Positions 1 to 33,560 of a DNA stretch of 64,000 bases are shown here, in pieces. The stretch's first letter is position 1, and each line of letters starts with the position of its first letter. This DNA comes from an uncultured Actinomycetes bacterium (GTDB lineage Bacteria; Actinomycetota; Thermoleophilia; Gaiellales; JAICJC01), in NCBI GenBank assembly GCA_963703275.1, contig OY969804.1, forward strand, positions 2,963,154 to 3,027,153, read 5' to 3'. The notes beneath the pieces are model-generated. The model was given only the letters and a program-made list of their open reading frames with translations. It was not told the origin of the DNA and did no database searches. Made by a program: the position numbers and the translations under genes.

Positions 1-200
1 TGAGAGTTGCGGCCGAGAGGGCAGAAATGGCCCTCTACGGCATCGATGACCATTCTCTCGGCGGCCAAGGTCGGGGCTTTGCGCCCTTTCAAGCTTCCGA
101 TGGGCGTAATGTGAACCAGGGCCGTGCGAAGGGACCGCAACGCGCGGCTGGTTTGACGATTCTCGCTCTGGGTGTACGCTAGTCACCGGGCCCAGAGGGG

Positions 201-1457: not shown

Positions 1458-1498
1458 CGACCGCGCGGGGTAGGTCGAGGCCACGAGTCATTGGGGGG

Positions 1499-2563: not shown

Positions 2564-2652
2564 GTGATCGGTACGTGTCTGCGCGGCATTTGCGTCCGGC
2601 GTTTTGGAGAGCGGCGCGTAGGGGGCCCCACGAGAAGGAAGGCTGTGCCAGA

Positions 2653-4551: not shown

Positions 4552-4552
4552 G

Positions 4553-5509: not shown

Positions 5510-5536
5510 GCCGTCACACTATCCGCGAATGCGCGT

Positions 5537-6700
5537 ATGAGCTTCGGCATCCTCACGCTGATCGTCGCCTGCGGCCTGGTCGGCCCACTGCTCTCGGGCG
5601 CGTCGAGGCTCACGGTGCCCGTCGTCGTTGGCGAGATCACGGCGGGAGTGCTGGTCGGTCAGACCGGCCTGCGCGAGATCGACCCGGCCGATCCGACGAT
5701 CGTCTTCCTCTCGAGTGTGGGCTTCGCAATGCTGATGTTCGTGGTCGGCACGAAGCTGCCGCTGCGCGACGCCGGGCTGCGGCAGGCCCTGCGCCGGGCG
5801 GCGGTCGCAAGCGTGCTCTCGTTCGTGATCGCCGTGCCCGGCGGGTGGCTCCTGTCGCACGTCACCGGGCTCGGGCATCCGGCAATTTTCGTGCTCCTCC
5901 TGGCGGCATCGAGCTCGGCCGTGGTGATGCCGATCGTTCAGGAGCGCGGCCTGACCGGCGGCGAGATGCTGCTCGTGACGGCGTGGATCGCCGTGGTCGA
6001 TATCGCCACCATCGTCGCCCTGCCGCTGGCGCTCGAGCCGTCCCAGGCGGCCCGGATCGCCGGCGGCGGCGTGCTGGTGACGGTGGCGGCGATCGGCGTG
6101 TTCCGGTTCATCCACGTGACCCGCTACCACCGGATCGTCACCGCGCTTCGCCGCGACTCCAAGCTGCGCGGATGGGCGCTCGACCTGCGCCTGTCGCTGG
6201 TGGTGCTGTTCGGCCTCGCGGCGCTCGCGACCCGGTTCAACACGAGCATCCTGATCGCCGGCTTTGCGGCCGGCATGATCGTTGCCCTGGCCGGCGAGCC
6301 GGGCCGGCTGACCGAGCAGCTGGTCGGTCTGGCCGAGGGGTTCTTCATCCCCTTCTTCTTCGTGGCCCTCGGGGCCAAGCTCAACTTCCGGTCGCTCGCA
6401 TCCTCGCGCACGAACATCGAGCTGATGGTGCTCCTGGCCGCCGCGATCCTCATCTGCCATCTGGCGGTGGCGATCGTGATGCGCATGCCGTGGCCGGCCG
6501 GCATGCTCGCATCCGCCCAGCTCGGACTGCCCGCCGGCGTGGTGTCGCTGGGGCTCACCGAGCACGTTCTGACGCCGGGAGAGGGCGCGGCGATCGTCGC
6601 CGCGGCGGTGATCACACTGGCTCTCTCGAGCCTGGGGGCGGTGCTGCTCTCGCGCACCCTGGCGCCGGCGCCGGGTACGGCGCCCGCGACTCCCGGGTGA
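5537..6700 (+). CDS. cation:proton antiporter (Na+/H+ or K+/H+ exchanger family)
   Basis: Polytopic hydrophobic protein whose N-terminus VVVGEITAGVLVGQTGL is typical of CPA exchangers. ATG 5537 chosen because upstream ORF sequence is antisense to the ADH gene. Confidence 0.75.
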   Translation: MSFGILTLIVACGLVGPLLSGASRLTVPVVVGEITAGVLVGQTGLREIDPADPTIVFLSSVGFAMLMFVVGTKLPLRDAGLRQALRRAAVASVLSFVIAVPGGWLLSHVTGLGHPAIFVLLLAASSSAVVMPIVQERGLTGGEMLLVTAWIAVVDIATIVALPLALEPSQAARIAGGGVLVTVAAIGVFRFIHVTRYHRIVTALRRDSKLRGWALDLRLSLVVLFGLAALATRFNTSILIAGFAAGMIVALAGEPGRLTEQLVGLAEGFFIPFFFVALGAKLNFRSLASSRTNIELMVLLAAAILICHLAVAIVMRMPWPAGMLASAQLGLPAGVVSLGLTEHVLTPGEGAAIVAAAVITLALSSLGAVLLSRTLAPAPGTAPATPG

Positions 6701-6707
6701 GTACAAT

Positions 6708-7139
6708 TTGACGATGTCCGATCCAGCCCCACGCCCCTGGTACGCCGAGCACGTCGACCGCTACCTCGCCACGAACGGCGAGGACGGCCACGACTGGAAC
6801 GGCAAGCCCACCCTGCTCCTCACCACCCGCGGCCGCCGGTCGGGGGAGCTGCACACGCTGCCGCTGATCTACGGCCGCGACGGCGACAACTTTCTGATCG
6901 TCGCGTCCCGCGGCGGCGCCCCCAAACACCCGAGCTGGTACCTCAACCTGGTCGCCGAGCCCGAGGTCGGCCTGCAGGTGCGCGACCGCGTCCTGACCGC
7001 CCGCGCCCACACCGCCGATCCCGGCGAGAAGCGGCGGCTGTGGCCGGTGATGACGGGGATCTTCCCCGACTACGACGACTACCAGAAGAAGACCGACCGC
7101 GAGATCCCGCTGGTCGTGCTCGAGCCCGTCACACCGTGA
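6708..7139 (+). CDS. deazaflavin (F420)-dependent nitroreductase-family protein
   Basis: [20 protein letters not shown] ... [17 protein letters not shown] pattern of the Ddn/DUF385-type family. Start is TTG 6708 or ATG 6714. Confidence 0.7.
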
Positions 7140-17922: not shown

Positions 17923-18000
17923 CATCGTAAGGAAGGGGGCAACGGTTCGAGTCCGTCAGAGGGCTTCCTTGTTTTCGGCTTTGTTGAGCGGATTCACGGC
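17923..18000 (+). repeat. direct repeat copy 2 (decayed tRNA-Thr 3' half), attR-like
   Basis: CATCGTAAGGAAGGGGGCAACGGTTCGAGTCCGTCAGAGGGCTT starts in the anticodon loop. The T stem is now mismatched, so this is not a functional tRNA. Confidence 0.75.
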
Positions 18001-18070
18001 GGGCAGGTCTCGTGAAGTGCCCGCGGGTCGACGCGGGTGGGAGCGTGGCCGTGGGCTCATGCTCACCGGC

Positions 18071-19180
18071 TCACTTGTGTTGCGCGGTCAGCGTCTCGGA
18101 CGGCTTCGCTCCGGCGTGGATCTCGCGTGTTCGCTCGAGTTCGGCGTTCACTTCGGCCGCGAACAGGATCGCGAGGCTGCAGAGCCAGAGCCATGTCAGG
18201 GTGATGATCACCGCCGCCAGGGACCCCCAGGCTTTGTTGTACGACGAGAACCCTGACGCGTATACGCCGAAGAGCGCCGATCCTGCGATCCAGAGCACCG
18301 CGCCTGCAATCGCGCCGGGCGTGATGAACTGGAACCGTGGGTGGTCGACATCGGGGCCGAGATACAGAATGCCACCGAAGGCCATCAGCAAGGCCACAAA
18401 GAGAATCGGCCACTGCAGCGTCCACCCGAAAAGGGACGCGGCTCCGGGATAGCCGGTGGCGGTTCCCACCCACCCGGTCATATACGGGGCCAGCACGACT
18501 ATCGCGAACATCGCCACCAGGGCTCCGGTCAGGATCAGCGTGATGAGAAGCGCGGACGCTCGACGGCGGATGAAGCCTCGCTCCTCGCGACGCTCGTAGG
18601 CCACGTTCAACCCCCACATCACGGTCTGCACCGCACCAGTCAGCGAGAACACGGCGAGTACGAGGCCGATGACCACCATGAGCCCGCCGGCCTGGGAGCT
18701 TGACACCTGTTCCAAGTTGGTGCGGATCAAAGTTTGCGCGCTTGCGGGCACGACGCCGTTGAGCTTGTCCACCAGCGCGTTGATGTCGCCCGGGCCGGCG
18801 GTGAGGTTGAGGATCCCAAGCGCCACGATCATCGCCGACGGGATTGCGAAGAACGCCCCGTAGGCGATGCCCTTGCCGATGCTCATCATGTTGTCGGCCA
18901 TTGTGCGCTTCGCTGCCCGCACGAAGACACTTACATAGTCGCTCGCGGGCAGGTCGGCGAGGCCAGGATTGGCGACGGGCGCCGGGTGTGCCGACCAGGC
19001 CGCTCCGGCCTCGGCCGTCGACACGTCGTTGGCGGGCCCGTGTGGTTCCGCGACGCGTCCGAATCGCGGTGGGTGGATTCTCGGCAACGGCTGGGTGATC
19101 CGCTTGTGGAGTTCCGCGATATCGGTCGCGACCGCTTCGCGCGCCTGCTCCGCAGCCAGTCGTGCACGTTCGGCTGACAT
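18071..19180 (-). CDS. YihY/BrkB family membrane protein
   Basis: GKGIAYGAFFAIPSAMI, QAGGLMVVIGLVLAVFSLTGA and SYNKAWGSLAAVIITLTWLWL are typical of YihY. Start at MSAERA (19180), 4 nt after the upstream stop. Confidence 0.8.
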   Translation of the reverse strand: MSAERARLAAEQAREAVATDIAELHKRITQPLPRIHPPRFGRVAEPHGPANDVSTAEAGAAWSAHPAPVANPGLADLPASDYVSVFVRAAKRTMADNMMSIGKGIAYGAFFAIPSAMIVALGILNLTAGPGDINALVDKLNGVVPASAQTLIRTNLEQVSSSQAGGLMVVIGLVLAVFSLTGAVQTVMWGLNVAYERREERGFIRRRASALLITLILTGALVAMFAIVVLAPYMTGWVGTATGYPGAASLFGWTLQWPILFVALLMAFGGILYLGPDVDHPRFQFITPGAIAGAVLWIAGSALFGVYASGFSSYNKAWGSLAAVIITLTWLWLCSLAILFAAEVNAELERTREIHAGAKPSETLTAQHK

Positions 19181-19184
19181 TGGA

Positions 19185-19394
19185 TCACACGACGTCGGCG
19201 TCGTCGGCCGCAAGCCGGCGCTCGATAACGTCGTTCAGCACCTTGGTCAGCACCGTCGTCAGAACGGCGACAGCCACGTATGCAACCCACTGCTTCTTCG
19301 CGACGCTGTGTTGCCTGGATTTTGTCTTGCGCGCCCGCATCGTCCCGGTCACTGCCGGTCTTACCAGAAGACCCGCAATATCTCCCGCACCCAT
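19185..19394 (-). CDS. small membrane protein (hypothetical)
   Basis: 69 aa with one TM (WVAYVAVAVLTTVLTKVL). Its ATG abuts the DUF3618 stop (TAGATG). Confidence 0.45.
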   Translation of the reverse strand: MGAGDIAGLLVRPAVTGTMRARKTKSRQHSVAKKQWVAYVAVAVLTTVLTKVLNDVIERRLAADDADVV

Positions 19395-19571
19395 CTAGAC
19401 CCTCCTGCTCTTTGTCTGAACGCTCTTCTTCAATCGCACGAGAGCGTCGGTGAAGCGATCCTTCGCTCGTTTGGGCGCGTTGGCGCGGTAGACCAACGCC
19501 TCCACCGTGTCCCCCAGATGGTCTCGCGCCTCCTCTACCTGACGGCGGACTTCGCGTGTGTCGCCACCCAT
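19395..19571 (-). CDS. DUF3618-like small protein
   Basis: MGGDTREVRRQVEEARDHLGDTVEALVYRANAPKRAK matches my memory of the DUF3618 N-terminal pattern. Overlaps the end of the holin-X gene. Confidence 0.6.
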   Translation of the reverse strand: MGGDTREVRRQVEEARDHLGDTVEALVYRANAPKRAKDRFTDALVRLKKSVQTKSRRV

Positions 19572-19954
19572 GCGACATCCTCCTTTGCAGACTCGACCGC
19601 ATCCAGCGGCAGGGGCGGCCCTGCTGAGCGCAGCGCCTTGACACCCGTGGTCGTGACGATCGCGGCGATCGCGGCCGCCACCACCGCAACAATCAGCGCA
19701 GCGAGCCAAACGTCGACCACAAGCGCGAGAGCGGCTATGGCAGCCGTGACCAAGCACGAAACCACGATCAACGCAAGGAGCACACCCACGGCGACCATGC
19801 CTACCCCGCGCGCCATGGTCGACGCGCGCTCCGAAACTTCGGCCTTGGCGAGCATCACCTCACCGCGCACCAACGCCGAAATGTCCTGCGAGAGTTGCTT
19901 GGACAGATCGCCGAGGGAACGCTCTTTAACGGGGCGTGTGTCGGTCACAGTCAT
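19535..19954 (-). CDS. Holin-X (phage holin superfamily III-like) membrane protein
   Basis: SLGDLSKQLSQDISALVRGEVMLAKAEV followed by two TM helices, the pattern of the actinobacterial Holin-X family. Confidence 0.7.
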   Translation of the reverse strand: MTVTDTRPVKERSLGDLSKQLSQDISALVRGEVMLAKAEVSERASTMARGVGMVAVGVLLALIVVSCLVTAAIAALALVVDVWLAALIVAVVAAAIAAIVTTTGVKALRSAGPPLPLDAVESAKEDVAWVATHAKSAVR

Positions 19955-20023
19955 CGAATACCCACATCAACACCTGCTCAACCATTTCCGTGGAGTTGGC
20001 GGAGCCTACGAGGCGCGCTCCGA

Positions 20024-20599
20024 TCAGCGCGGCGCCGGGGCACGGTCCTGGTTGCTGTGCACCCCTTCCGCGAACTCCTCCACAATCTTCTGGCAGAAGG
20101 CGTCGAGGTCGTCGGGCTTGCGACTGGTGACCAGGCCGCGGTCCGTGACCACCTCCTGGTCGACCCACTTGGCACCGGCGTTGCGAAGGTCTGTGCGAAG
20201 GCTGGGCCAAGACGTGACTCGAACGTCGTCAACGACGTTCGCCTCGACGAGCATCCAGGGCCCATGGCAGATTGCTGCCACGGGCTTGGCCTGGTCGAAG
20301 AAGGATCGGACGAATCGCACGGCGTTGTCGTCCGTTCGAAGCGTGTCCGGGTTGATGACGCCTCCGGGCAGCACCAGTGCGTCGTAGGCGTTCGGGTCGG
20401 CGTCGTCCAAGGCGCGGTCGACGGGGAACTTGTCACCCCTGTCGTGGTGGTTGAACGCCTGAATTTCCCCTGGCTTCAATGACACCAACTCCGCGGCGCC
20501 GCCCGCTTGGCGCACCGCATCCAGCGGCCGCTCCAACTCGACCTGCTCGACCCCATCGGTCGCGAGAAACGCAATTTTCTTGCCGTCCAGCAGTGCCAT
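20024..20599 (-). CDS. DJ-1/PfpI family type 1 glutamine amidotransferase-like protein
   Basis: YDALVLPGG and nucleophile elbow AAICHGPW. ATG 20599 is preceded by AGGAGGA. Confidence 0.85.
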   Translation of the reverse strand: MALLDGKKIAFLATDGVEQVELERPLDAVRQAGGAAELVSLKPGEIQAFNHHDRGDKFPVDRALDDADPNAYDALVLPGGVINPDTLRTDDNAVRFVRSFFDQAKPVAAICHGPWMLVEANVVDDVRVTSWPSLRTDLRNAGAKWVDQEVVTDRGLVTSRKPDDLDAFCQKIVEEFAEGVHSNQDRAPAPR

Positions 20600-21127
20600 C
20601 CGTCTTCCTCCTTTGCGGGTGTCTGTGATCGAGTACCCGTGGTCGGGCGCCTCTACACCTGGTCGGAACTTTCCGGGTCGGCCGCGCCCGCCAGCTCCGC
20701 GGAAACCTCCCCGCAGGCGTTCGTCCACGCGCTCCTCCTCCTCTGTCCCTCAGCCGTCCGGCCGCCCCGTGTTGCCGTCCGCGAGCCGGCCCAAAATGAT
20801 GGTCATCGAAGTCCGGTGTGGGCGAGAACTGGTCCGCTGCGCATTCGTTGTCGACTGAAGGTTTCGGGTTCGCGCGAGGCCGGGTATCCACGGTTCCCAG
20901 GCGGCGCGTTCGTAACGCTTGGAGGTGGGGGGTGTTGTCTGCCTTGCGCTTGCTCTTGGGTACTGACACCGTTGGACCATTCGGGATCCTTCTGATGGCA
21001 GAGAAGGGCGAGATGGCGACGCCTTTACCGACGGCACCGGAAGCGGTTTGGTGCGCGCGGGAGGTTCGGTGGCTCAGCCTGCTCTCAGCGTCGGTCCGTG
21101 CGAGCGGAAGGGACGGGAGGTAGTTCG

Positions 21128-21520
21128 ATGGGATCCGAGTCGGAGGTGCGTCTGGGGGAGTGGCGGTTTGCTGCCACACCGGAGCATGTGCCACTGATTC
21201 GGCATCGCGTGGTACGACTCGTCGAGGGCCTCGGTGTCGATCGGGCCGCCGTCGCGCTCGCGGTGACAGAGGCGGTCGCCAACGCGGTTCGCCATGCCTA
21301 CCCCAGTGGGATTGGCGAGGTGCGGGTGCGGGTTTCCGCGGTCGACAACGGAGTTGTGGTATCGGTTGCCGACGACGGCATCGGCGTGCGCGGGTTCACC
21401 GCCAGCCGGAGCCCGGGCGACGGACTCGGGCTGGGGCTGATCAGAGCACTGGCGGACCGAGCGCGGATCGAGCCAGGCAGCAACGGCACGCTGGTCGAGA
21501 TGGTGTTCGAACGGTCGTAA
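21128..21520 (+). CDS. anti-sigma regulatory factor, RsbW/SpoIIAB-like Ser/Thr kinase (HATPase_c)
   Basis: N-box TEAVANAVRHAY, G1 ADDGIG, G2 GLGLGLI. GGGAGG lies 7 nt before ATG 21128. Confidence 0.75.
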   Translation: MGSESEVRLGEWRFAATPEHVPLIRHRVVRLVEGLGVDRAAVALAVTEAVANAVRHAYPSGIGEVRVRVSAVDNGVVVSVADDGIGVRGFTASRSPGDGLGLGLIRALADRARIEPGSNGTLVEMVFERS

Positions 21521-21692
21521 TCCGGTGGTCGGCGACGCCATTCCTGCTTGACGTTGCGCGCTGCGCGCTCGTAAACTCTGGGTGACTGGGGTGGATCGAC
21601 AGCTCACCATTTTGCGGACGGGAACGCGCCGTGACCGCGATCGGACGGTTCGGCGTCGGCTTCAATCGTGATGACCGTGGGAGGAGGGTGTC

Positions 21693-22055
21693 ATGCTCGA
21701 AAATCGGGTGGTCGTGGAGCAGTTCGGTTCGTCGGCGTGGCAGATCAGTCTCATCGGCGAGCATGACCTCTCGACTGTGCCGGAGGTTCAGAATGCGCTC
21801 GAACAGGTCTTCTCCAAGGGGACGACCATCGTCATCGACCTGTCTAGCACCACATTCATCGACTCCTCGATGATCAGATTGCTCATCGGTGCCCAGATGC
21901 GGGCGAACGCGAACCCCGCCGAAGAACTTGTACTCGTCGCAACGCCCGGCGCTCGAGCGGCCGATGTCATCGAGCTCGCGGGTGTTCGACCGGTGTTGCG
22001 CATGTACGACTCGCGTGAGGCCGCCGAGAACGCACTGACAGCCTCCTCAGCTTAG
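21693..22055 (+). CDS. STAS-domain anti-sigma factor antagonist (RsbV/SpoIIAA-like)
   Basis: 120 aa with the conserved phosphorylatable-serine context TTFIDSSMIRLL. Strong RBS GGGAGGAGGG. Confidence 0.85.
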   Translation: MLENRVVVEQFGSSAWQISLIGEHDLSTVPEVQNALEQVFSKGTTIVIDLSSTTFIDSSMIRLLIGAQMRANANPAEELVLVATPGARAADVIELAGVRPVLRMYDSREAAENALTASSA

Positions 22056-22133
22056 AGCGCAAGCTGCTCCGCTTGGCCGAGGTACTCGCCCAAGCGCGTC
22101 TGCAAGCCGGTCTCGCTCGCTTCGGCGTGTCGC

Positions 22134-22559
22134 GTGTATTCGTGGCGGCTCGGGGGTACCACGCCCGTGATGGCTCTTGACGCCGGTTTTGGGTTCAAGC
22201 TCACCAGTGAGCACGACAACGTCATCGTCGTGCGACGCGCGTTGCGCGCACTCTTGGGGCGCGCGGAGATCAGCGCCGAGCGTGTCTCAGACATCGTGCT
22301 CGCGACGACCGAGGTATGTACGAACGCTGTTCTGCATGCCTACCCTGAGCGCGAGGGAGTCTTCCAGATCGAAGCCCGGCTCACGCCCGAATGTGTGACC
22401 GTCATCGTCCGTGATCATGGGGGCAACTATGCCGCCGATCGTCGCCGCGGACTCGGTGTATCGCTGGTCGCGGCACTCGCCGACGCCATCGAGATCGATG
22501 CGATCGAGGGTATCGGCACCGAGGTCCGCATGACCTTCAGCCTACTCGACTCCGAATGA
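22134..22559 (+). CDS. second anti-sigma regulatory factor kinase (HATPase_c), divergent
   Basis: N-box TTEVCTNAVLHAY. G1 is degenerate (RDHGGN). G2 is GLGVSLV. Start uncertain, 22134 or ATG 22170. Confidence 0.7.
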   Translation: MYSWRLGGTTPVMALDAGFGFKLTSEHDNVIVVRRALRALLGRAEISAERVSDIVLATTEVCTNAVLHAYPEREGVFQIEARLTPECVTVIVRDHGGNYAADRRRGLGVSLVAALADAIEIDAIEGIGTEVRMTFSLLDSE

Positions 22560-22624
22560 GCTCCGATTCGTCCTGAGTCGGCGTTCGGGACGTGCGGGCG
22601 CTACTCGTTTCCGCCTTCGAGCGC

Positions 22625-22642
22625 AAGCCGTCGTTACGGCTT
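22625..22642 (+). terminator. small hairpin downstream of the partner-switching genes
   Basis: AAGCCGT-cgtt-ACGGCTT, a 7-bp stem with a 4-nt loop and no clear U tract. Confidence 0.3.
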
Positions 22643-22730
22643 GAATGCCGAAATGCACGAAGCCTGTACCTGCCATTCAACGGTCGGCCCAAGCGCATTC
22701 TGAGTCACCACAAATGGGCCCCGGGGTATC

Positions 22731-23084
22731 TCAGGCCAGGCTCTTGGTGCCGCGGACCCTCAAAGCGACGGCGCATGCGCTCGCTCCAAGCACGCCCACA
22801 CCAAGCACGACCTTGGCGACCCGCCGCCGTTTTGAGCGTGGATCGGTGCGATTTGCGATCGCTCGGATCGCGTCGGAGGTCGCTCGTAGGTCGGCGACCA
22901 CGCGTGGGTCCGACATAGCCTGAGCGTAACCAACTATCTGGGCTCGTCGGACGCCGTCCGACGCAGCCTCAGCCGCCCGTCGCGCATGCTCTTGCACCCG
23001 GGGATCCGAAACGAATCGGATAGCGCCTTCCCTCCATACCCGTGCGGACGACACCGTCTCGTTGATCTTCGAGGATCGTTTCAT
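22731..23084 (-). CDS. hypothetical C-terminally membrane-anchored protein
   Basis: 117 aa from ATG 23084, helical and charged, with C-terminal TM VVLGVGVLGASACAVAL. The longer ORF, extending to 23561, is antisense to the next gene. Confidence 0.4.
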   Translation of the reverse strand: MKRSSKINETVSSARVWREGAIRFVSDPRVQEHARRAAEAASDGVRRAQIVGYAQAMSDPRVVADLRATSDAIRAIANRTDPRSKRRRVAKVVLGVGVLGASACAVALRVRGTKSLA

Positions 23085-23316
23085 GTGTCCGTGGTTCCCC
23101 GATCGCCCGAACGCAAAACGCACGGACGCCGCGCGCCTCGCCGCCCGGCGTAATCGGTGAGAGCGCCACGACCCGGGGACGGGACGCCTCTCGGGTTTGG
23201 GATGACCGCCCGCGGGGCAACGGCACCAACGCGATGACGACCGCTTGATGTGCCGAGGTCCGAGCGAGGAGTGGCATGCAGACGGCGGACCCGTCCACAC
23301 GAACAAAGGAGTAGAC

Positions 23317-23808
23317 ATGGCAGATCTCACGAACCTCGAGACCAAGCTCGGTGAAGTCACCGGTCTGGCGATGGCCGCCCAGGCGGCGACCGAGAAGGTG
23401 CTCAAGCTGGCCAAGCAGGACGGCGAATCACAGCTCGAAGCCAAGCTCACGCAGATGCACGCCGAAGCCGCCGAGACCGAGAAGCGCTGCACACACCTGT
23501 CCGAGTCGTTCGAGGGCAAGAAGACCGCAATCCTCGAGGAGGCCCGGTCGACGAAGTCCAAGGGCGCGGAAATGATGAAGACCTACCTCGACGAGGAGTC
23601 AGATTCGCTGGACGGCTTCGAGTTCCTGACCATGGCCGAGGCCGGCGAGGTCGGCCACTGGTCAGTGCTCCAGGCCATGAACGGCGACAACCCTCAGGTG
23701 GCAGAGCTCGTGGGCTGGGCACTCCCGATCCAGCAGCGCCACCTCAGCGAGGTCATGGCGGCCTCGATCAATCTGGCCGCCGCCGAAGACCCCGACGAAG
23801 CAGCCTGA
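23317..23808 (+). CDS. ferritin-like / four-helix-bundle domain protein (tentative)
   Basis: 163 aa, helical. Motif LDGFEFLTMAEAGEVGHWSVL recalled from actinobacterial ferritin-like-domain proteins. RBS AAAGGAG. Confidence 0.55.
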   Translation: MADLTNLETKLGEVTGLAMAAQAATEKVLKLAKQDGESQLEAKLTQMHAEAAETEKRCTHLSESFEGKKTAILEEARSTKSKGAEMMKTYLDEESDSLDGFEFLTMAEAGEVGHWSVLQAMNGDNPQVAELVGWALPIQQRHLSEVMAASINLAAAEDPDEAA

Positions 23809-23816
23809 CGGCCGTC

Positions 23817-23861
23817 AGCCCAGTCAGGCCGCCTGCATTTACGAGCGGCCTGAACTGGGCT
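23817..23861 (+). terminator. strong stem-loop after the ferritin-like gene
   Basis: AGCCCAGTCAGGCCGC - 12-nt loop - GCGGCCTGAACTGGGCT. 16 bp with one bulge, 9 nt after the stop codon. Confidence 0.55.
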
Positions 23862-23962
23862 ATTCGGAACTTCATAGGCGAATCGCGAGGCATCGCGACA
23901 TCCCGATCGCGGTCTCCAGAACGAGGAACCCTCTTTGGGCGGACACGAAAGGAGCGATAGCA

Positions 23963-24112
23963 ATGCCGAGCAGCAACGGGCAGGACCACGCATCACGACC
24001 GACGGCCGACAGGCCCGCCAAGGCCCACCCGCCGCCCGCCCCCAAACAACAACAACCCACTTCACCCGAGAAGTCCAAAGACATCCACGGCGACCCCGAA
24101 ACACCTGTCTGA
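23963..24112 (+). CDS. 49-aa hydrophilic Pro/Gln-rich micro-protein (unlisted ORF)
   Basis: ATG is 8 nt after GAAAGGAG. Hand translation is MPSSNGQDHASRPTADRPAKAHPPPAPKQQQPTSPEKSKDIHGDPETPV. Falls below the ORF-track length cut-off. Confidence 0.3.
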   Translation: MPSSNGQDHASRPTADRPAKAHPPPAPKQQQPTSPEKSKDIHGDPETPV

Positions 24113-24246
24113 CGCCAAGCTCCCCTCGAGCCTAGGCGCGGTCGCGCGTGATCCACAGGATACGCCACGCCCTGGTTTGCGAAACACCGGGCCTGGGCAT
24201 TGTGTCCATCGCAAGCCTTGTTCTCCGCTGTTCAGAAGGGAGGGTC

Positions 24247-24330
24247 ATGCTAATCGAGATTCTCATCGTTCTCGCGATCATCGCGCTCGCGCTGTTCATC
24301 TGGCGCAGCGTCGCTGGGCGCGGCGTCTAG
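24247..24330 (+). CDS. 27-aa single-TM peptide (unlisted start inside ORF 24148-24330)
   Basis: GGGAGGG lies immediately upstream of ATG 24247. Peptide is MLIEILIVLAIIALALFIWRSVAGRGV. Confidence 0.3.
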   Translation: MLIEILIVLAIIALALFIWRSVAGRGV

Positions 24331-24377
24331 GCTGGCAGACGAACGTCCATCACTATCGCCGCCGGGCGGGATGCGCG

Positions 24378-24779
24378 TCACGTCCAGCCCGGCGTGCGTC
24401 CCGCTTGCTCGATCCACTTCTCCATCTCCGGTCGCTGTGCCTCCTCTAGGCTGGTTACCTTGATGTACCGGGTCCGGTCGGTCGTTCCGAGAGGGGGCGG
24501 GGACTCGAAGTCGGCGCCGCCGAGGAACACGACGTTCACGGAAACGTCGTAGGCGGCTATTTCAATGATCCACCCGAGTTCTGGTAGCCCGTAGTACGCC
24601 CTTCTCCACTTGACGGCGTGGTCAAGCCCCGGGACTGTCGCTCGGATCGACTCATCCAACCACTTGACGATGGGCTGCAGGTCCGGCATCACACGCCGGC
24701 ACCAATGATCGATGTCCGAGTGATTCGCCGAGGGCTCTGGGGGCTTCCGCCCAGCGTTCCCCTTGATCGCTTTCGGCAT
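24378..24779 (-). CDS. DUF1801 (YdhG-like) domain protein
   Basis: 133 aa. AVKWRRAYYGLPELGWIIEIAAYDVSVNVVFLGGADF fits the DUF1801 pattern. Confidence 0.65.
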   Translation of the reverse strand: MPKAIKGNAGRKPPEPSANHSDIDHWCRRVMPDLQPIVKWLDESIRATVPGLDHAVKWRRAYYGLPELGWIIEIAAYDVSVNVVFLGGADFESPPPLGTTDRTRYIKVTSLEEAQRPEMEKWIEQAGRTPGWT

Positions 24780-24861
24780 TCGCGTGTCCTCCCCGCTGGA
24801 TTCGCACCCTCGCCCCGTTTCGGTGTCCCCAACCGTTCAGCACTCGAGCCTGCCCGCTGCG

Positions 24862-25134
24862 CTACGACCCCACCCCGGCCGACCGCTCCATCCGCACGCG
24901 CGCGCGAATCACCAGGCGGGTGATCTCGCCGAGTTCGTCGCCTCGGCTCACATAGGTAGGAACCGAGAACGTCACCGTGTCACCATCGGGCCCTTCCACT
25001 GTGACGGTGATGGAGTCCCTTGCGGCGTCCGAGTCAAACGGAAGGTACTTCCAGCCCGGACAGCCGCCGACGTCGACCCGGCCTCGGCTGTCGTACGGAG
25101 AGGAATCGGCACGTACATCACGGCGATTCTTCAT
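24862..25134 (-). CDS. hypothetical protein
   Basis: 90 aa from ATG 25134 (MKNRRDV...). No recognisable motif. Codon pattern is plausible. Confidence 0.3.
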   Translation of the reverse strand: MKNRRDVRADSSPYDSRGRVDVGGCPGWKYLPFDSDAARDSITVTVEGPDGDTVTFSVPTYVSRGDELGEITRLVIRARVRMERSAGVGS

Positions 25135-25336
25135 GCGGGACAGAATACCCAAAATCCCACGCACGTAACCACGCCCGCGTCCTCGCGTAGGCGGGGGTCA
25201 GAGACTCGCTGGCCAGCGTCTCGGTGTGTGATTCCGAGGCGGCCGCCACGACCGACGCTGGCTGCGTGGGTCCGCGCCTCGTTCTTCGGCGAAAGGCGAC
25301 CGGGTACAGCTCAGCCGCGACACTAGAGCGGGGTAG

Positions 25337-25570
25337 CTACGAGACGACGGGCGGGCCTCCGGTGCGATCATCCACCACCGTAGCGCCACGGCGCGACGCG
25401 GTCGCGACCATGATGAGTGAGATCACAAGAGCCACAACGCCGGCGATCATCAGAATGTCCCCAATGATGTGCCAGTTGACGGTAATGCCTGCGAAGTGCC
25501 CCCGCAAGCTTACGCCGAAGCGCAGAATCGCACCGATCGCGATGAGAATTATCGATCCACCGATACCCAT
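25337..25570 (-). CDS. DUF6458-like small membrane protein
   Basis: MGIGGSIILIAIGAILRFGV ... WHIIGDILMIAGVVALVISLIM. Two TM helices, typical of the family. Confidence 0.65.
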   Translation of the reverse strand: MGIGGSIILIAIGAILRFGVSLRGHFAGITVNWHIIGDILMIAGVVALVISLIMVATASRRGATVVDDRTGGPPVVS

Positions 25571-25678
25571 GGTTTTTGCTCCCTTTCTCGTAAGTATGAG
25601 TCGTGTACCCGGCTCCCGGCCGGCGCAAACAGTCCCAAGACGCGGCGCGGCCTTTTGCTAGGGCCGCAAAGATTGCGA

Positions 25679-26347
25679 TTGAGTCGCGGCAGATTTGGGT
25701 ACGACACGCCTGTGAACCCGTTCCACACCTGGCGGATCCGCACGCTCGACGCGGTCGTGGCGATATGGACGTGCCTTTGGATCGGCCTTGGCGTGCTCGT
25801 TGCGCACGACTTACGTGAACTTACCCAGCTCTCCGCGACCATCGCCACCACCGGCCGGGCAATGCAATCGATCGTCGATGCGATCGCACCGCTCAAGTCG
25901 CTTCCGATTGTGGGCTCGACGATCACACCGCTCGCCACGACTGCGGCTTCCGAGGCCGCATCCGTGCGGGCCAGCGGACGGGTGAGCGCGCAGAGCGTCC
26001 GCCAGCTCTCGGTACTGCTCGGAATCGCCGTGGCCGTCGCCCCCGCCCTGCCCCTGCTCGTGCTCTACATCCCGCTGCGTGTCTCGCAGGAACGCGAGGC
26101 ACGTGCCTTCCGGCGCGCCCTCGCCGACGGCGCCTACGACCCCGTGTTCGAGGAGTTCCTCGCGCACAGGGCTGCACACAACCTGCCTTACCACAGGTTA
26201 CGAGAGATCACGACCAACCCCTGGCGAGAGATCCAGGACGGCCACTTCCGCCGCCTTGCCGACGCTGAGCTGAAACGCGTCGGCGTGCGGCGGCCACCCA
26301 CACCCGCACCTGCGCGTGACAGCACGCACGCGCACGAGCACTCCTAG
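25679..26347 (+). CDS. hypothetical membrane protein
   Basis: TM segments VVAIWTCLWIGLGVLVA and LLGIAVAVAPALPLLVLYI. Start uncertain, TTG 25679 or GTG 25712. Confidence 0.45.
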   Translation: MSRGRFGYDTPVNPFHTWRIRTLDAVVAIWTCLWIGLGVLVAHDLRELTQLSATIATTGRAMQSIVDAIAPLKSLPIVGSTITPLATTAASEAASVRASGRVSAQSVRQLSVLLGIAVAVAPALPLLVLYIPLRVSQEREARAFRRALADGAYDPVFEEFLAHRAAHNLPYHRLREITTNPWREIQDGHFRRLADAELKRVGVRRPPTPAPARDSTHAHEHS

Positions 26348-27223: not shown

Positions 27224-28693
27224 CTATCCGTCGACGAGGAGCCCCTGAACGGGGCCGAGCAGGCGCGCGGTGTTGCGTGAGACATGGTCGAGTCGCATCA
27301 GTCGGTGGGTGAGCGGCCTGCCGTGGCGGTGGTGGTCGAGTTGCGCCTCCGCGATCGGGCGCCACCGGTGATCGATGATGTCGGTGGGGTCGCCATCGAT
27401 GTCTGCTGGTGTGCATTCGAGGTGCTCGGCCCACAGCGCGAGCCGGGTTCTGTGGGCGAGGCTCGGATCGTGGGTGACAACGTTCAGCTCGGTGTCGTTG
27501 AAGAGGGAGTGGTCGTTCAGGTTCGCAGACCCGATCGTCAACCAGCGATCATCCACGATCCCGATCTTGGCGTGCACGTAGATCGGATCGGCGGTGAGGC
27601 CGGCGCGGGCGAACAGGCAACAGGCAAGCACCCGGCCGTGTCCACGGTCGGCCGCGATCAGCTCTGCAAGCGCTCCACGCGTGTCATCGCCTCCCCCCTT
27701 GGGCTTCACCGGCAGTACGAGCACGATCCGGAATCGGTCGCTTGGCGGCCGGCGAAGCTTCTCTCGCAGCACTGCGACAATTTCGGGTGACCACAGGTAC
27801 TGCGTCTCGAGGTAGATCAGGCTCTCGGCCGAGCGAAGCGCGCGCAGGTAGGACTCGAGCACGCCGAACGCTCCCCGCGGCAGCGCCGGATAGACGCCTT
27901 CCGGGCACGTTCCAACGAGCTGGGCGGCCACCGAGCCGGCGGGTTCGGAAGGCTGGGGCGACGCCAGTCGCTCGCCCGTAACCGCCTCCCAGCGCAGGTT
28001 GAAGTGTTCGGCCACGTCTGCCACCAACGGACCCCGGATCCGGGTCGTCGCGTCATGCCACCCCAACGCGGCGCGAGCGGGATGGCGCGACGAGTCGCGA
28101 CGATCGCCCGCGAGCGAGGTCATGTCGATGCCGCCCACAAACGCGACGCGATCGTCGATCACGATCGACTTCTCGTGGTGGCAATGAAGGGGCCTCTCCC
28201 GGCTATCGAGAGCGCACTGCACAACCCCGGCCGCCCGAAACTCGTCACGGACACCCCGCACCAACCTCCGCGACGGCGTAAACACCGGCAACGGCGCGCC
28301 CGCCCACAGAAGCACACGAACCTCGACCCGCGCCGCCGCCCCAACCAGCAGATCACGCACCACCACCGGCGGATCGCCCGCCACCAACACGAACCCCGGC
28401 GAGATAAACCATCCAGTCAAATGCACATGGGACGACGCCGCGCGGATCTCCTCCACCATCCGCGCCAGCGCGAACTCACCGTCAACCAGCACCTCCAACT
28501 CGTTCCCATGCCGCGGCGGCGGAGCATCATCCGCCCACCCGCCCGCCGGCGCCCCCAGCACCACACTGCCAACCCGCTCCAGCCGCCGCGCATGATGCCG
28601 ACGAACTCCCCAAGAGATACCCTCGCCCGCCACTCGATCGACCCTCGAAACCGCATCATCGACTCCCATACCCACCACCCTACGGCAAACCAA
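27224..28693 (-). CDS. phospholipase D / cardiolipin synthase-like protein (two HKD motifs)
   Basis: HKD motifs HCHHEKSIVIDDRVAFVGGIDMT and VHAKIGIVDDRWLTIGSANLNDHS. Confidence 0.8.
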   Translation of the reverse strand: MVCRRVVGMGVDDAVSRVDRVAGEGISWGVRRHHARRLERVGSVVLGAPAGGWADDAPPPRHGNELEVLVDGEFALARMVEEIRAASSHVHLTGWFISPGFVLVAGDPPVVVRDLLVGAAARVEVRVLLWAGAPLPVFTPSRRLVRGVRDEFRAAGVVQCALDSRERPLHCHHEKSIVIDDRVAFVGGIDMTSLAGDRRDSSRHPARAALGWHDATTRIRGPLVADVAEHFNLRWEAVTGERLASPQPSEPAGSVAAQLVGTCPEGVYPALPRGAFGVLESYLRALRSAESLIYLETQYLWSPEIVAVLREKLRRPPSDRFRIVLVLPVKPKGGGDDTRGALAELIAADRGHGRVLACCLFARAGLTADPIYVHAKIGIVDDRWLTIGSANLNDHSLFNDTELNVVTHDPSLAHRTRLALWAEHLECTPADIDGDPTDIIDHRWRPIAEAQLDHHRHGRPLTHRLMRLDHVSRNTARLLGPVQGLLVDG

Positions 28694-28753
28694 ACCGCTA
28701 ACTCGACCACCATTGGACTGCCGCAGCGATGACGACTCCGCCGGGAGCAGGTT

Positions 28754-31077
28754 CTAGGTCACGGGCAGGGTGACGGCCTCGCGCGTCGCCCTCTCTCCAG
28801 TCCGGAGGCGTTTGCCCGGCCAGCCACTGGCTTCCCCAAAAAGTGCGATCAGGGCCGGGGCGAGGAGGGAGCGCACGACGAAGGTTTCGAGCAGGAGTCC
28901 GACGACCATTGCGAAGGCGACCTCGCGGAAGGAGCGCACGGGGATGACGGCGATGACGGCGAAGCTGGCGGCGAGGGTGATGCCGGCGGTGCGGATGGTG
29001 CGGGCGGCGCTTGGGGAGGCGATCGCGATTGCTTCGCGGAGCGGCCGGAGGCGTGCTTCCTGCCAGATCCTGCCAACGACGAAGACGTTGTAGTCCGAGC
29101 CGAGTGAGATCAGCAGCACGGCCACGGCGAAGGGCACGTAATACGCGAGCTGGTGATAGCCGAGGAGCGTCTGGAACACCCAGGTTGTGATGCCGAGCGC
29201 CGCCGCGACGGCTCCGACGCTGGAGAGCAGCAGGAAGACGGGGGCGGTGATGCCTCCCAGAAAGATGATCAGAAGCAAGAGGTTGACGGCGAGGACGACC
29301 GCCGAGACGCGCAGGATGTCGCTATGAATGGTTGTGACGGTGTCGTCGGCGATGGCGGTGTCCCCGGCGAAACTGATCCGGGCCGATCTCAGGCCGGCGC
29401 CGGCCGCCAGGGAGGGCATCGCGGCTTGCAGACGCTGCAGGTCATGGATCCCGGACGCGGACAGGGGATCGTCTCGGAAGATCACGACGATCCGCGCGGC
29501 GTTGCCGCCCGGGGCAAGGAAGACGCCGAATCGAGCCGGAGTTGGTTGTTCGCGGGGGCCGAGAACACCGGCGACGCCCGGCCGGCGCTCGATCTCCGAC
29601 TCCAGACGAGAGAGGCGGGTGTGGAAGAACCCCGCCGCTACACCGCGGCCTTGGACCAGGACGGTCGTGGGGTCGAGGATGCCGGGCGCGAACCCGCGCG
29701 ACGCGTTCTGTGCGGCCCGCTGAGGCGCCGAACTTTTGGGCAGATCGCTGATCTGGCCGAACCCGAGCCGGAGATCGCGAAGCTGACTTGCTCCGACCGC
29801 GAGCAGGGCGATGCACGCGATCGCCGTCACCGCGGCCACCGGGCGACTGGTCATTCGGTACGCGATCCGATAGCGCCGCGAGGCGGTGGGCGCCGGCGTG
29901 TCGGCGCCAGCGTCGGTAGGCACCCGCGGCCAGTACGCGAAGCGGCCGAGGACCGCGAGCAGTGCGGGCAGCAGCGTCAGCGACACCACCAGCGCCACGG
30001 CAACCGTCAGTGCGAGTGCGGGGCCGAGGTTTCGGAAGAACGAAAGGCTGGAGACGAGCAGGCCAAGCAGGCCGCAGCTGAGGATCAGGCCGCTGGTGAG
30101 GATGATCGGCGAGAACTCAGCGGTCGTCGTGCGCACGGAGGCGTGAGCCGATCATCGCCCGCGACTCGCCGTCTGCGCACGCCCGAGAGGAAGAAGATCG
30201 AGTAGTCGGTGACGATCCCGAGCAGGAGCGCGACAATCACCGGGTCAAGCTCCTGAGGAACGTCGATACCGAACCTGCGGCTCAACTGGTTGAGTCCCAC
30301 CAGCGTGATCGGGAAGGCAACGCCGATCGCCGCCATCGGCACCAGCGGCGCCACCAACGAGCGATAGCTGACCGCCACAATCACGATGATCAGCGCCGCC
30401 GTGAGCAACTCGATCACGTTCAGATCGTGGTCGATCAGGACTCCCTGCGCGACCTGGCCAGGCACCGCGCCCGTCAGGCCCGCTGGCCGCCCGGTCGCCC
30501 GTGCCAGCGCAGCAGCATACCGGTGGGCCGAGGCGATCTGGGCATTCACCGGCATGCTCTGCGGGTAGTACAGAAACGTCACCGCCGTCGTGCCCGACTC
30601 GCGCGACCCCGGCACCAACCGCAGCGTGTCGACCAGCGGAAGCGCAAACGCCGGCCTCGAACCCTCTTGCGTCGCCCGACGATCAACAGCAAGCGCTTGC
30701 GAGAACACCGCGGCATGCGCCCCCGCCGACAACCCACCCGGATCCCGCACCACCACCGCAAACTCCGACCCCGCCGGCACCTTAAAAATCCGAAGCGACG
30801 TCGCAAGCGCCCTCAACGCCGGAGCGTTCCCCGGAATCAACTGAACCACCGGCCCACTCGAAGATCCAAACGACGGCAGATGCACAACCGCCAATCCCGC
30901 CACCACCAACCACACCAACAGCAGCGGCACCCGCAACCACACCACCACCGTCCCATACAAACGGGGACCGCGACCAACCCGGAGGCGTCGCCGACGCGTC
31001 ACCGACGATGATCCCGATTGTGATGGCAGCCCGGACACTGAGACCACCACTACCCCGCAGACGCATCTGCTAACCAC
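28754..31077 (-). pseudogene. MMPL family (RND superfamily) lipid/metabolite transporter, split by a frameshift near 30137-30151
   Basis: N-terminal ORF 30085-31077 ends just after IVTDYSIFFLSGVRRRR. The sequence continues in another frame (28754-30151) as SVRTTTAEFSPIILTSGLIL...LLPALLAVLGRFAYWP. Together they make one MMPL. Confidence 0.7.
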
Positions 31078-31278
31078 CGCGGGAGTCGCCAGACATCGAG
31101 TACGGACGCTCCCGTCAGGGACGATGGGCCGGAGGTTCTCGCCGTCGTCGTTGCCTGGCTGTCGCGGCGTCCGCCGATCGCTCGATCGACGAACCGGTTG
31201 GGGTGGACGTGTTTGTCGGGCGTCGCCGGGTGGAATGAAGGTGTTGGTGAGTATGCACTCGGCGATGGGAGGATCCCG

Positions 31279-31833
31279 ATGGGGTGGACAATTGCGGCGG
31301 CCGTGGCGGTTGCGGTCGTTGTGGTCGTGGTGAGCGGGGTTGTATGGGCGAGCGCGCGGCGGACGCGCGAGTTGCAGCGCCAGTTCGGACCTGAGTACGG
31401 GCGTACGGTCGCAACGGTGGGCGAGCAGCAGGAGGCCGAGGAGGAGCTGCGACGGAGGACGAAACGTCGCGAGCAGTTGACCATCCTCCCGCTGTCAGAG
31501 AGTGACCAACGAGCCTTCTCGCAGCGATGGGAGGCGACGCAAGCGAGATTCGTGGATACACCGGCAATCGCAGTCGAGGACGCCGATCGGTTGATCAGCG
31601 ACGTGATGACCGTGCGCGGGTATCCCGTCGAGAACTTTGAACAGCAGGCAGCGGATGTGTCGGTCGACCATCCGGAGGTGGTGGCTGAATATCGGGCTGG
31701 CCATCGCCTCGCCGGGGCCAATGGGCCGCAACAGGCAAGCACGGAGGATCTCCGCCGAGCGATCGTTCACTATCGAGCGCTTTTCAAAGCCTTGGTGACC
31801 GACACCGACAAACAATCGGAGGCACGTCAATGA
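31279..31833 (+). CDS. hypothetical N-terminally anchored protein (paralogue A)
   Basis: ATG 31279 after GGGAGG. TM IAAAVAVAVVVVVVSGVVW. Shares SQRWEATQARFVDTP...EDADRLISDVM and STEDLRRAIVHYRALF with the next gene. Confidence 0.55.
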   Translation: MGWTIAAAVAVAVVVVVVSGVVWASARRTRELQRQFGPEYGRTVATVGEQQEAEEELRRRTKRREQLTILPLSESDQRAFSQRWEATQARFVDTPAIAVEDADRLISDVMTVRGYPVENFEQQAADVSVDHPEVVAEYRAGHRLAGANGPQQASTEDLRRAIVHYRALFKALVTDTDKQSEARQ

Positions 31834-32264: not shown

Positions 32265-32444
32265 CCCATCCAGCACGCGCCGCGATACCCCAGAGCCCGC
32301 GCAGGAAGACGGGCGAGGCGCCGCCTTGAGGTGCGCCTTGCGGGTGGCGGAGCCTGATCCTGGCGCGCGACGTCTTCATCGACAACACCGTCTTGCTGCG
32401 ACGCCTTCGCCTGGGCGTCTTCCTCTCCAGCGCGGCCGTGCGAA

Positions 32445-33560
32445 ATGGTGGGATCGAACCGGGCCTCTTTCGGGTGGCACCTTATCTGGGATGGTGGTTG
32501 TGCCGATAGACACTGGGTGTGGCTGCACCGACGGAGCGGTTTGAACTTGCCTGACTCGATCGTCGATGGCGTGCTGGTTCGGGTGGCGTTGGAGCTGGCC
32601 GAACCGACGACCGTCGAGGGCGTGTTGGACACCCTGGCGCGCGAGTTGACTGGGGCGGTTGCGCGTGCATCAGAGTGCACCATCTCGACGTGGGATCCGA
32701 TCGGCGACCAGTTGGTGGTGGCGGCCGTCGGCTACGCCGATGAGTGGCCCGAGGAAGATGAGCATGGCAAGCGGTACGCGTTGGGTGACTACCCTGGCCT
32801 GCGAGACCTCCTCCACCGCCATGGCGGCTACGTGCAGTATCGCGCGTCGGACCCGAGTCTTCCGGAGCGGGTGCGTGCGCAGTTGGCCGAGTGGGGGTGG
32901 CAGACGTGGTTGTCGGTTCCGCTGATCGTGGGCGGCGACGCGGTCGGTGTCATCGAGGTGGTCGACTACCGGTCAAGCGAGGCCTGGTCGGCGGCGGACG
33001 TACGCTCGTGCCAGGCGTTGGCGAGCTTGGCTGCGGTGTCGGTGCGAAACGCCCAATTGGTGGCGGAACTGCGCGACCTCGCCGACAGAGACCCGCTAAC
33101 TGGATTGCTCAACCACCGTGCCTTCTACCAAGCGCTCGAGCAGCAACACGCCCAGTCGTTGCGAACCGGTGAGCCGCTGGCCGTGCTTGTTGCAGACCTC
33201 GACGAGTTCAAAGCGCAGAACGACCATTACGGGCACTTGTACGGCGATGAAACCCTCCGCCGTGCTGCACAGGTCATCGTCGGCCTCACGCGTCCTGGCG
33301 ACATCGCTGGCCGTATTGGAGGAGACGAGTTCGCCGTGGTGCTTCCAAACGCGGCCACGACCGACGTCGAAACGATCGCGCATCGCCTCGTCATCGGCCT
33401 GCAGGACTCGGCCGGCCTCTCCGCGTCGGTCGGCATCACCCTTAGCCCCACCCCCAACAGCAGCCAGTCACACTTGGACATCGTCGAGGGCGCCGACCAC
33501 GCACTCCGCGTCGCCAAGCACACCGGTAAAGGCGGCGTCCGCATCGCAGACGCCGCCTAG
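32445..33560 (+). CDS. GAF-domain diguanylate cyclase (GGDEF)
   Basis: RDPLTGLLNHRAF, active site GGDEF, and I-site RPGD five residues upstream. N-terminal GAF-like region. Start uncertain. Confidence 0.85.
   Translation: MVGSNRASFGWHLIWDGGCADRHWVWLHRRSGLNLPDSIVDGVLVRVALELAEPTTVEGVLDTLARELTGAVARASECTISTWDPIGDQLVVAAVGYADEWPEEDEHGKRYALGDYPGLRDLLHRHGGYVQYRASDPSLPERVRAQLAEWGWQTWLSVPLIVGGDAVGVIEVVDYRSSEAWSAADVRSCQALASLAAVSVRNAQLVAELRDLADRDPLTGLLNHRAFYQALEQQHAQSLRTGEPLAVLVADLDEFKAQNDHYGHLYGDETLRRAAQVIVGLTRPGDIAGRIGGDEFAVVLPNAATTDVETIAHRLVIGLQDSAGLSASVGITLSPTPNSSQSHLDIVEGADHALRVAKHTGKGGVRIADAA

Follow-up and report, generated by a model that had tools for sequence, protein, structure and literature searches.

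Kinase-STAS-kinase genes of an uncultured Gaiellales bacterium as probable parts of a dispersed SigB/SigF-type partner-switching network

The described partner switches closest to the one presented here include RsbV-RsbW-SigB and SpoIIAA-SpoIIAB-SigF of Bacillus subtilis, in whose canonical sigB and spoIIA operons the genes for antagonist, kinase, and sigma factor are co-transcribed in that order. Streptomyces coelicolor encodes 9 SigB homologues, 45 RsbW-like proteins, 17 RsbV-like proteins, and 44 PP2C phosphatases; its sigF is unlinked to the regulators, and its BldG protein is phosphorylated by several kinases (PMC8346170). The promoters of its nine SigB homologues carry the elements GNNT and GGGTA(T/C/G) with a spacing of N14-16 (PMC8346170). 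The SigF consensus of Mycobacterium smegmatis is GTTT-N14-19-GGGTA, with many promoters 8 to 11 nucleotides (nt) from start codons, and among the members of the SigF regulon are MSMEG_1787, an RsbW gene that stands alone, as well as genes for an antagonist and a phospholipase D (PMC4694148). We present here an analysis of three genes, encoding an RsbW-like protein (K1), a STAS-domain antagonist (STAS), and a second RsbW-like protein (K2), in a 64,000-nt stretch (the window) of the genome of an uncultured member of the Gaiellales (contig OY969804.1, positions 2,963,154 to 3,027,153). In our reading the three probably have transcripts of their own and belong to a dispersed partner-switching network of the SigB/SigF type, with the sigma factor encoded in another part of the genome.

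The window resembles the B. subtilis switches in the single-domain GHKL fold of its kinases (template modeling [TM] scores of 0.7 to 0.9 to 6M36/6M37, 1TH8, and 1L0O), the Asp-Ser site of STAS, the GGGTAT-type -10 element, and the SpoIIE-type PP2C genes of related loci. It differs from them in lacking a sigma factor gene in the operon or in the 64 kb, in placing a kinase before the antagonist, in having a promoter-like site for each gene, and in the much shorter ATP lids of its kinases; instead of the canonical operon layout, we found the order kinase-STAS-kinase in 64 kb free of sigma genes. With the S. coelicolor network (BldG, UshX, RsfA, and SCO7328) it shares scattered regulators unlinked to a sigma gene and promoter-like sites of the type GNNT-N14-16-GGGTA(C/T), whereas S. 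coelicolor belongs to another actinobacterial class and the K1-STAS pair carries a conserved spacer specific to its lineage. The mycobacterial SigF system (UsfX/RsbW, RsfA, and RsfB) is similar in its GTTT-N14-19-GGGTA promoters and in UsfX (8IH8 and 8JZT), which is among the best structural matches of the kinases; in mycobacteria usfX adjoins sigF, whereas the window has no linked sigma gene. Locus L034 (related loci are numbered in this way) is like the window in its kinase-STAS order, its protein families, and a 45% identical relative of K2, but it holds two SigB/F/G sigma factors and a phosphatase within 6 kb, and the window has none.

The genes were modeled from a listing of open reading frames (ORFs), G+C content by codon position, and gene calls made independently for six public assemblies that contain the same STAS protein. 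All of this evidence agrees on three intact genes on the plus strand, with strong ribosome-binding sites before K1 (GGGAGG) and STAS (GGGAGGAGG). K2 starts at the ATG at 22170 and not at the GTG at 22134, because 15 homologues begin at the equivalent Met and L010 has an in-frame TGA upstream; the gaps are therefore 172 nt between K1 and STAS and 114 nt between STAS and K2. The module region is near-identical in at least five separate sample assemblies, so the locus is not an assembly artifact. The preliminary description of this DNA, made before any database search, had proposed two RsbW/SpoIIAB-type kinases on either side of one STAS gene, and the ORFs together with matches to PF13581, PF01740, and PF13466 bear this out. 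It had given the gaps as 172 and about 80 to 110 nt, of which the first stands and the second becomes 114 nt once the K2 start is set, and it had regarded them as unusually long; both hold promoter-like sites and are no oddity.

K1 and K2 are stand-alone single GHKL domains with neither a DHp nor a sensor domain. They match PF13581 (HATPase_c_2) at 78 bits (E value, 8e-22) and 75.7 bits (4e-21), respectively, against a cut-off of 27.4 bits, and their top NCBIfam matches are RsbA, RsbW, and SpoIIAB models. By sequence, the nearest solved relatives are B. subtilis RsbW (6M36), the RsbW domain of Rv1364c, and SpoIIAB. AlphaFold models (predicted local distance difference test scores of 85.1 for K1 and 85.3 for K2) best match RsbW in its complex with RsbV (6M36/6M37), SpoIIAB, Mycobacterium tuberculosis UsfX, and Rv1364c, with TM scores of about 0.7 to 0.9; the best match of K2 is RsbW. 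Histidine-kinase catalytic domains reach TM scores of only about 0.55. We also considered whether the genes are fragments of sensor histidine kinases, an outcome that the preliminary description had named as one that would overturn it. PF13581 scores far above PF02518, no DHp domain is present, and the folds favor RsbW, SpoIIAB, and UsfX, so this idea was rejected.

The two kinases are 28% identical to each other. K1 has complete motifs, with an N box containing E48, N52, and H56 (TEAVANAVRHA), a G1 box (DDGIG), and a G2 box (GLGLG). K2 retains Glu48, Asn52, His56, Asp82, Gly84, and Gly96, all invariant in its family. Its G1 box (DHGGN), which had been called degenerate, does depart from the family, with Asn86 at a position where 70 of the 71 members have Gly, though this change alone is not proof of inactivity. 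The active kinase RsbW of B. subtilis has Ser at the aligned position (DEGDS), and Asn86 thus need not inactivate K2. The ATP lids are short in both proteins (13 to 17 residues between the G1 Asp and the G2 Gly), and that of K2 is the shortest in its family.

STAS matches PF01740 at 37.3 bits (cut-off, 22.6) and PF13466 at 39.1 bits (cut-off, 29.2), and it scores 47.5 bits with TIGR00377, slightly below the cut-off of 53.45. Its FIDSS motif aligns with the FMDSS motif of SpoIIAA (1H4Y/1H4X), the site of phosphoserine, and Asp57-Ser58 is invariant among six family members; the phosphorylatable serine first noticed in the letters is thus indeed retained. A STAS-based scan of species-representative genomes returned only relatives at 30 to 45% identity.

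Missing parts of the switch were sought by Pfam scans of virtually all plausible ORFs in the 64 kb, directly or through precomputed annotation of matching contigs. These scans found no Sigma70, SpoIIE/PP2C, or RsbR/T domain in the window, nor any STAS or HATPase_c_2 gene besides the three. Six-frame phmmer searches of the window with Escherichia coli RpoS and FliA and two SigB/F/G sigma factors from L034 found nothing, while the control sigma factors were recovered at E values of 7e-21 to 8e-12. The proposed lack of a sigma factor, PP2C, or RsbR/T gene within many kilobases is accordingly borne out over 21 kb on the upstream side and 41 kb on the downstream side. The 757 nt after K2 (22560-23316) hold no convincing gene and match no Pfam or Rfam family; a sigma pseudogene there was considered and rejected after neither Pfam nor phmmer with RpoS, FliA, and the L034 sigma factors gave a match, and no PP2C remnant was found in this interval. 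STAS and kinase genes are scattered over 16 related loci, none of which has a clear sigma gene, the sole match being a weak one in L017 (E value, 1e-4). The absence of a neighboring sigma gene is the norm in this lineage and in Streptomyces.

The DNA around the module carries motifs that equal the consensus for SigF of M. smegmatis and the SigB promoter type of S. coelicolor (Table 1). The pattern GTTT-N13-18-GGGTA occurs 4 times in the window against 0.24 expected, a number reached in none of 100 shuffles, and all four sites lie within 20.8 to 28.7 kb. Three are intergenic and correctly oriented, and the genes that follow them encode K1, phospholipase D, and a protein of 77 amino acids (aa). 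Between 12 and 32 kb, GNNT-N16-GGGTAY lies at most 50 nt from the start codon of 5 of 21 genes (0.33 expected; Poisson P value, 2.6e-5), namely K2 and four nearby genes of a stress type (holin-like, DJ-1/PfpI, 77-aa, and 211-aa), with GNNT exactly 16 nt upstream in each. The region from 19.9 to 28.7 kb thus looks like a candidate stress-regulon island of SigB/SigF-type promoter-like motifs. In loci of the K2 family, GGGTAY stands at -16 to -11 in five of five, with GNNT 16 nt upstream, and the surrounding DNA is not conserved; this placement fits a K2 transcript that may be leaderless or nearly so. Among relatives of K1, the paralogous kinase described below has GGTTT-N16-GGGTAC at -130, and in L013 and L033, where a K1-type gene stands alone, GTTT-N16-GGGTAG precedes the ATG by 10 nt.

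TABLE 1 Genes, promoter-like motifs, and leader of the kinase-STAS-kinase region (positions in the window)
Feature	Position	Strand	Detail or basis
K1, predicted RsbW-like Ser kinase/anti-sigma factor	21128-21520	+	130 aa
STAS, predicted anti-sigma-factor antagonist	21693-22055	+	120 aa; Ser58 codon at 21864-21866
K2, predicted RsbW-like anti-sigma factor	22170-22559	+	129 aa; Asn86 codon at 22425-22427
GGTT-N16-GGGTAT motif, start of holin-like gene (19535-19954)	19958-19983	-	
GTGT-N16-GGGTAC motif, 33 nt upstream of DJ-1/PfpI gene (20024-20599)	20633-20658	-	
GGTTT-N17-GGGTAT motif, 240 nt upstream of K1	20860-20887	+	Motif match
Sigma-70-type promoter-like site TTGACG-N18-TAAACT, for STAS	21548-21577	+	Motif match
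Conserved leader of about 110 nt, near-invariant GACAGCTCACCATTTTGCGG ... GCGATC, ending in GGGAGGAGG ribosome-binding site	21578-21692	+	Spacer alignment
GTGT-N16-GGGTAC motif, 10 nt before K2 ATG	22134-22159	+	Motif match, K2-family comparison
GTTT-N16-GGGTAC motif, 34 nt upstream of 77-aa (membrane protein) gene (25337-25570)	25605-25630	-	
GATT-N16-GGGTAC motif, 9 nt upstream of 211-aa gene (25712-26347)	25677-25702	+	
GGTTT-N13-GGGTAT motif, about 100 nt upstream of phospholipase D gene (27224-28564)	28668-28695	-	

K2 belongs to a family separate from that of K1 and larger, with 71 clusters, the named members of which come from metagenome-assembled genomes of Gaiellales and Solirubrobacteraceae. 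The relatives of K2 in L010 and L011 stand alone, and the one in L012 lies near, yet outside, a SpoIIE-STAS-kinase cluster; a K2-type gene beside this STAS gene was seen only in the present genome. The relative P0061 (45% identity) sits in L034, where the gene order is sigma factor (229 aa), hypothetical protein, PAS-GAF-SpoIIE (882 aa), kinase, STAS, hypothetical protein, sigma factor, hypothetical protein, kinase, and STAS. The second sigma factor (249 aa) scores 231 bits with TIGR02980, and both are of the SigB/F/G type, a context that supports a target of this type for the K2-like kinase family. Kinase followed by STAS is, per L034, the usual order in these organisms. The complete L034 locus spans 196-7051 and is a useful reference for the whole system in this lineage.

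A second kinase-STAS pair lies about 1 Mb away on the same 3.79-Mb contig (L008, 9430-10664), with 85% and 82% protein identity to K1 and STAS, and a third RsbW-like gene is found in L008 at 19309-19650; both are traits of a dispersed network. DNA alignment shows that the duplicated unit begins a short way before the ribosome-binding site of K1 and ends at the stop codon of STAS; it includes the spacer and leaves K2 out. Orthologs of K1, spacer, and STAS occur on metagenome contigs in L027/L028 (74% and 71% protein identity), L029/L030 (82% and 70%), and L014 (56% and 55%). None of these orthologous and paralogous loci has a K2-type gene after STAS. K1, the 172-nt spacer, and STAS are a conserved two-gene unit, and the window triad is two independent pieces, K1-STAS and K2. 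Across paralogs and orthologs, protein identity is 70 to 86%, against 40 to 67% at four-fold degenerate sites in most comparisons, and because the former exceeds the latter we regard the unit as being under purifying selection.

The related loci also preserve a record of a phosphatase. The gene for a DUF4118-GAF-GAF-SpoIIE phosphatase overlaps the STAS stop codon in L027, in L019 and L022 a GAF-SpoIIE gene runs convergently toward a STAS gene of more distant kinship, and L032 has the order kinase-CsbD-SpoIIE. The paralog in L008 is followed directly by a 62-residue SpoIIE fragment that is 47% identical to the L027 enzyme, and no SpoIIE/PP2C remnant was found at the window locus (best E value, about 0.3). 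An ancestral kinase-STAS-PP2C module was likely duplicated in this genome, after which both copies lost the neighboring phosphatase.

Taken as parts of a dispersed network, the three genes would work as follows. K1 would sequester a SigB/F/G-family sigma factor encoded elsewhere and would phosphorylate STAS on Ser58, and unphosphorylated STAS would bind K1, freeing the sigma factor. A PP2C encoded elsewhere would reverse the phosphorylation; in relatives, the sensor GAF-SpoIIE phosphatase encoded beside STAS would reset the antagonist, and this neighbor appears to have been lost at the window locus and its paralog. K2 would be a second anti-sigma factor, from a separate and usually solitary family, and would probably sequester a sigma factor likewise. 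The sigma factor would induce K1 and K2 from SigB/SigF-type promoters, creating negative feedback, while STAS would be expressed from a promoter of the housekeeping type, with a conserved leader downstream of it. Of the two options raised in the preliminary description, a sigma factor encoded elsewhere or a non-sigma partner, the former is favored by the RsbW-, SpoIIAB-, and UsfX-like folds, the SigB/SigF-type motifs around the locus, and the L034 sigma factors; the target itself is one that we infer.

Several points weigh against this account. The sigma target of K1 and K2 is inferred only, and the promoter assignments are motif matches only. The K1 motif stands 240 nt from its gene and is absent from the orthologs in L027 and L029. 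The NCBIfam scores of the kinases (41 to 58 bits) lie well under the RsbW/SpoIIAB equivalog cut-offs (135 to 155 bits), by which K1 and K2 appear to be members of the superfamily and not RsbW or SpoIIAB orthologues. The short lids of both proteins and the unique Gly-to-Asn change of K2 make the kinase activity of K2 uncertain. Finally, a GAF-ANTAR gene follows STAS in L029, a hint of possible non-sigma outputs.

Such an output, with a cyclic di-GMP (c-di-GMP) enzyme or an ANTAR antiterminator as effector as in SypA/SypE, HsbA, and Bordetella Btr, seems very unlikely to us. The sigma-free window would suit it, as would the GAF-ANTAR gene, a PAS-GGDEF-EAL gene near the SpoIIE-STAS-kinase cluster of L012, and the noncanonical roles on record for STAS-only proteins (reviewed in PMC8256260). 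So would a gene for a GAF-GGDEF diguanylate cyclase 10 kb downstream of the module (32358-33560), a conceivable non-sigma partner, for which no link to the module was found. SigB/SigF-type motifs are, however, enriched around the locus and conserved before K2-family genes, SigB/F/G sigma genes lie on both sides of a relative of K2, every one of the best structural matches is an anti-sigma factor that binds a sigma factor, and unlinked sigma genes are normal in actinobacteria (PMC8346170). We give more credence, while still thinking it unlikely, to a triad for signal integration, in which K1 and K2 both bind or phosphorylate STAS, or do both, and so couple two inputs or two sigma factors. The three genes are adjacent on one strand, and both kinases have folds like that of RsbW in the RsbV/RsbW complex. 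The absence of K2 from the paralogous copy and the orthologous K1-STAS loci speaks against it, as do the solitary K2-family genes of L010 and L011 and the one in L012 that is not beside a STAS gene, the conserved promoter motif that K2 has to itself, and the low identity of K1 and K2. The earlier suggestion of one antagonist common to two kinases consequently loses ground, since K2 lies outside the duplicated and orthologous unit, comes from a normally solitary family, and has its own promoter-like site; by analogy with BldG (PMC8346170), it is possible that K2 shares this STAS.

It is as improbable as a non-sigma output, in our estimate, that the module is decaying or partly disabled, with little regulatory role, or that K2 is a noncatalytic binder only. 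The PP2C remnant at the paralog, with none in the window, would accord with decay, as would Asn86, unique among 71 sequences, and the minimal lid of K2. Yet the three ORFs are intact and near-identical across the assemblies, the unit bears the mark of purifying selection, and no family member, K2 included, departs from the N box, the Asp and Gly of G1, or the Gly of G2. The Ser of B. subtilis RsbW at the position of Asn86 also argues against decay, and a PP2C may act from elsewhere in the genome; the S. coelicolor genome carries 44 such genes (PMC8346170).

The spacer between K1 and STAS (21521-21692) is better conserved than the flanking synonymous sites in most pairs, over five distinct loci: it is 64 to 71% identical between ortholog pairs, whose four-fold degenerate sites are only 40 to 63% identical. 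Orthologous spacers are 171 to 179 nt long, or 136 nt in L014. Both hexamers of the STAS promoter-like site are kept in six of seven orthologous and paralogous spacers, the L014 spacer being without the -35 stretch. Indels among orthologs are not multiples of three, which rejects a small ORF, and a stably folded RNA was rejected by a minimum free energy weaker than that of shuffled sequence (z score, +1.57). There was no Rfam match at an E value of 1 or below, and the five sequences show too little covariation for a structure call. A pattern scan of metagenomes for further copies of the spacer gave nothing but a false positive, located in an acyl-CoA dehydrogenase-like ORF, and nhmmer across the collected loci matched K1-STAS spacers only. 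The conserved STAS promoter-like site and leader together might be a new cis-regulatory element that sets the amount of antagonist, in a lineage that runs its switch mainly by regulated STAS synthesis against sigma-induced kinases and not by dephosphorylation. We offer this idea because both K1-STAS copies have lost their PP2C neighbor and K2, with its Gly-to-Asn change and minimal lid, sits there, and we hold it to be doubtful.

Further features of the surrounding sequence are as follows. Downstream of the module, 23317-23808 encodes an acidic, helix-rich protein of 163 aa that belongs to no Pfam family. The G+C content is 0.64 to 0.65 at 18000-26000, compared with 0.68 to 0.74 at 2 to 12 kb, and the third-position G+C content of K1, STAS, and K2 (0.74 to 0.77) is below that of most window genes. 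In some assemblies an MMPL transporter gene (28754-31494, minus strand) is a single ORF of 666 aa, whereas the window and other assemblies have it as two overlapping ORFs. A split is also seen in some assemblies for the phospholipase D gene (minus strand). These splits are either long-read indel errors or strain-level frameshifts.

The layout of the locus matches the dispersed networks of S. coelicolor and the mycobacterial SigF regulon, and it is ordinary, in a poorly studied uncultured lineage. A kinase-STAS cluster with no sigma factor or phosphatase gene nearby is normal for actinobacteria and is no sign of a new mechanism. Only two features go beyond the textbook picture: the conserved leader of STAS and the second, slightly atypical anti-sigma gene that locally takes the place of the phosphatase. 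In the whole locus, only the leader might be worth taking to experiment. The locus extends the SigB/SigF-type motif, putatively leaderless anti-sigma genes, and the dispersed layout to an uncultured soil lineage, and it adds a candidate stress-regulon island (19.9 to 28.7 kb) and a record of local phosphatase gene loss.

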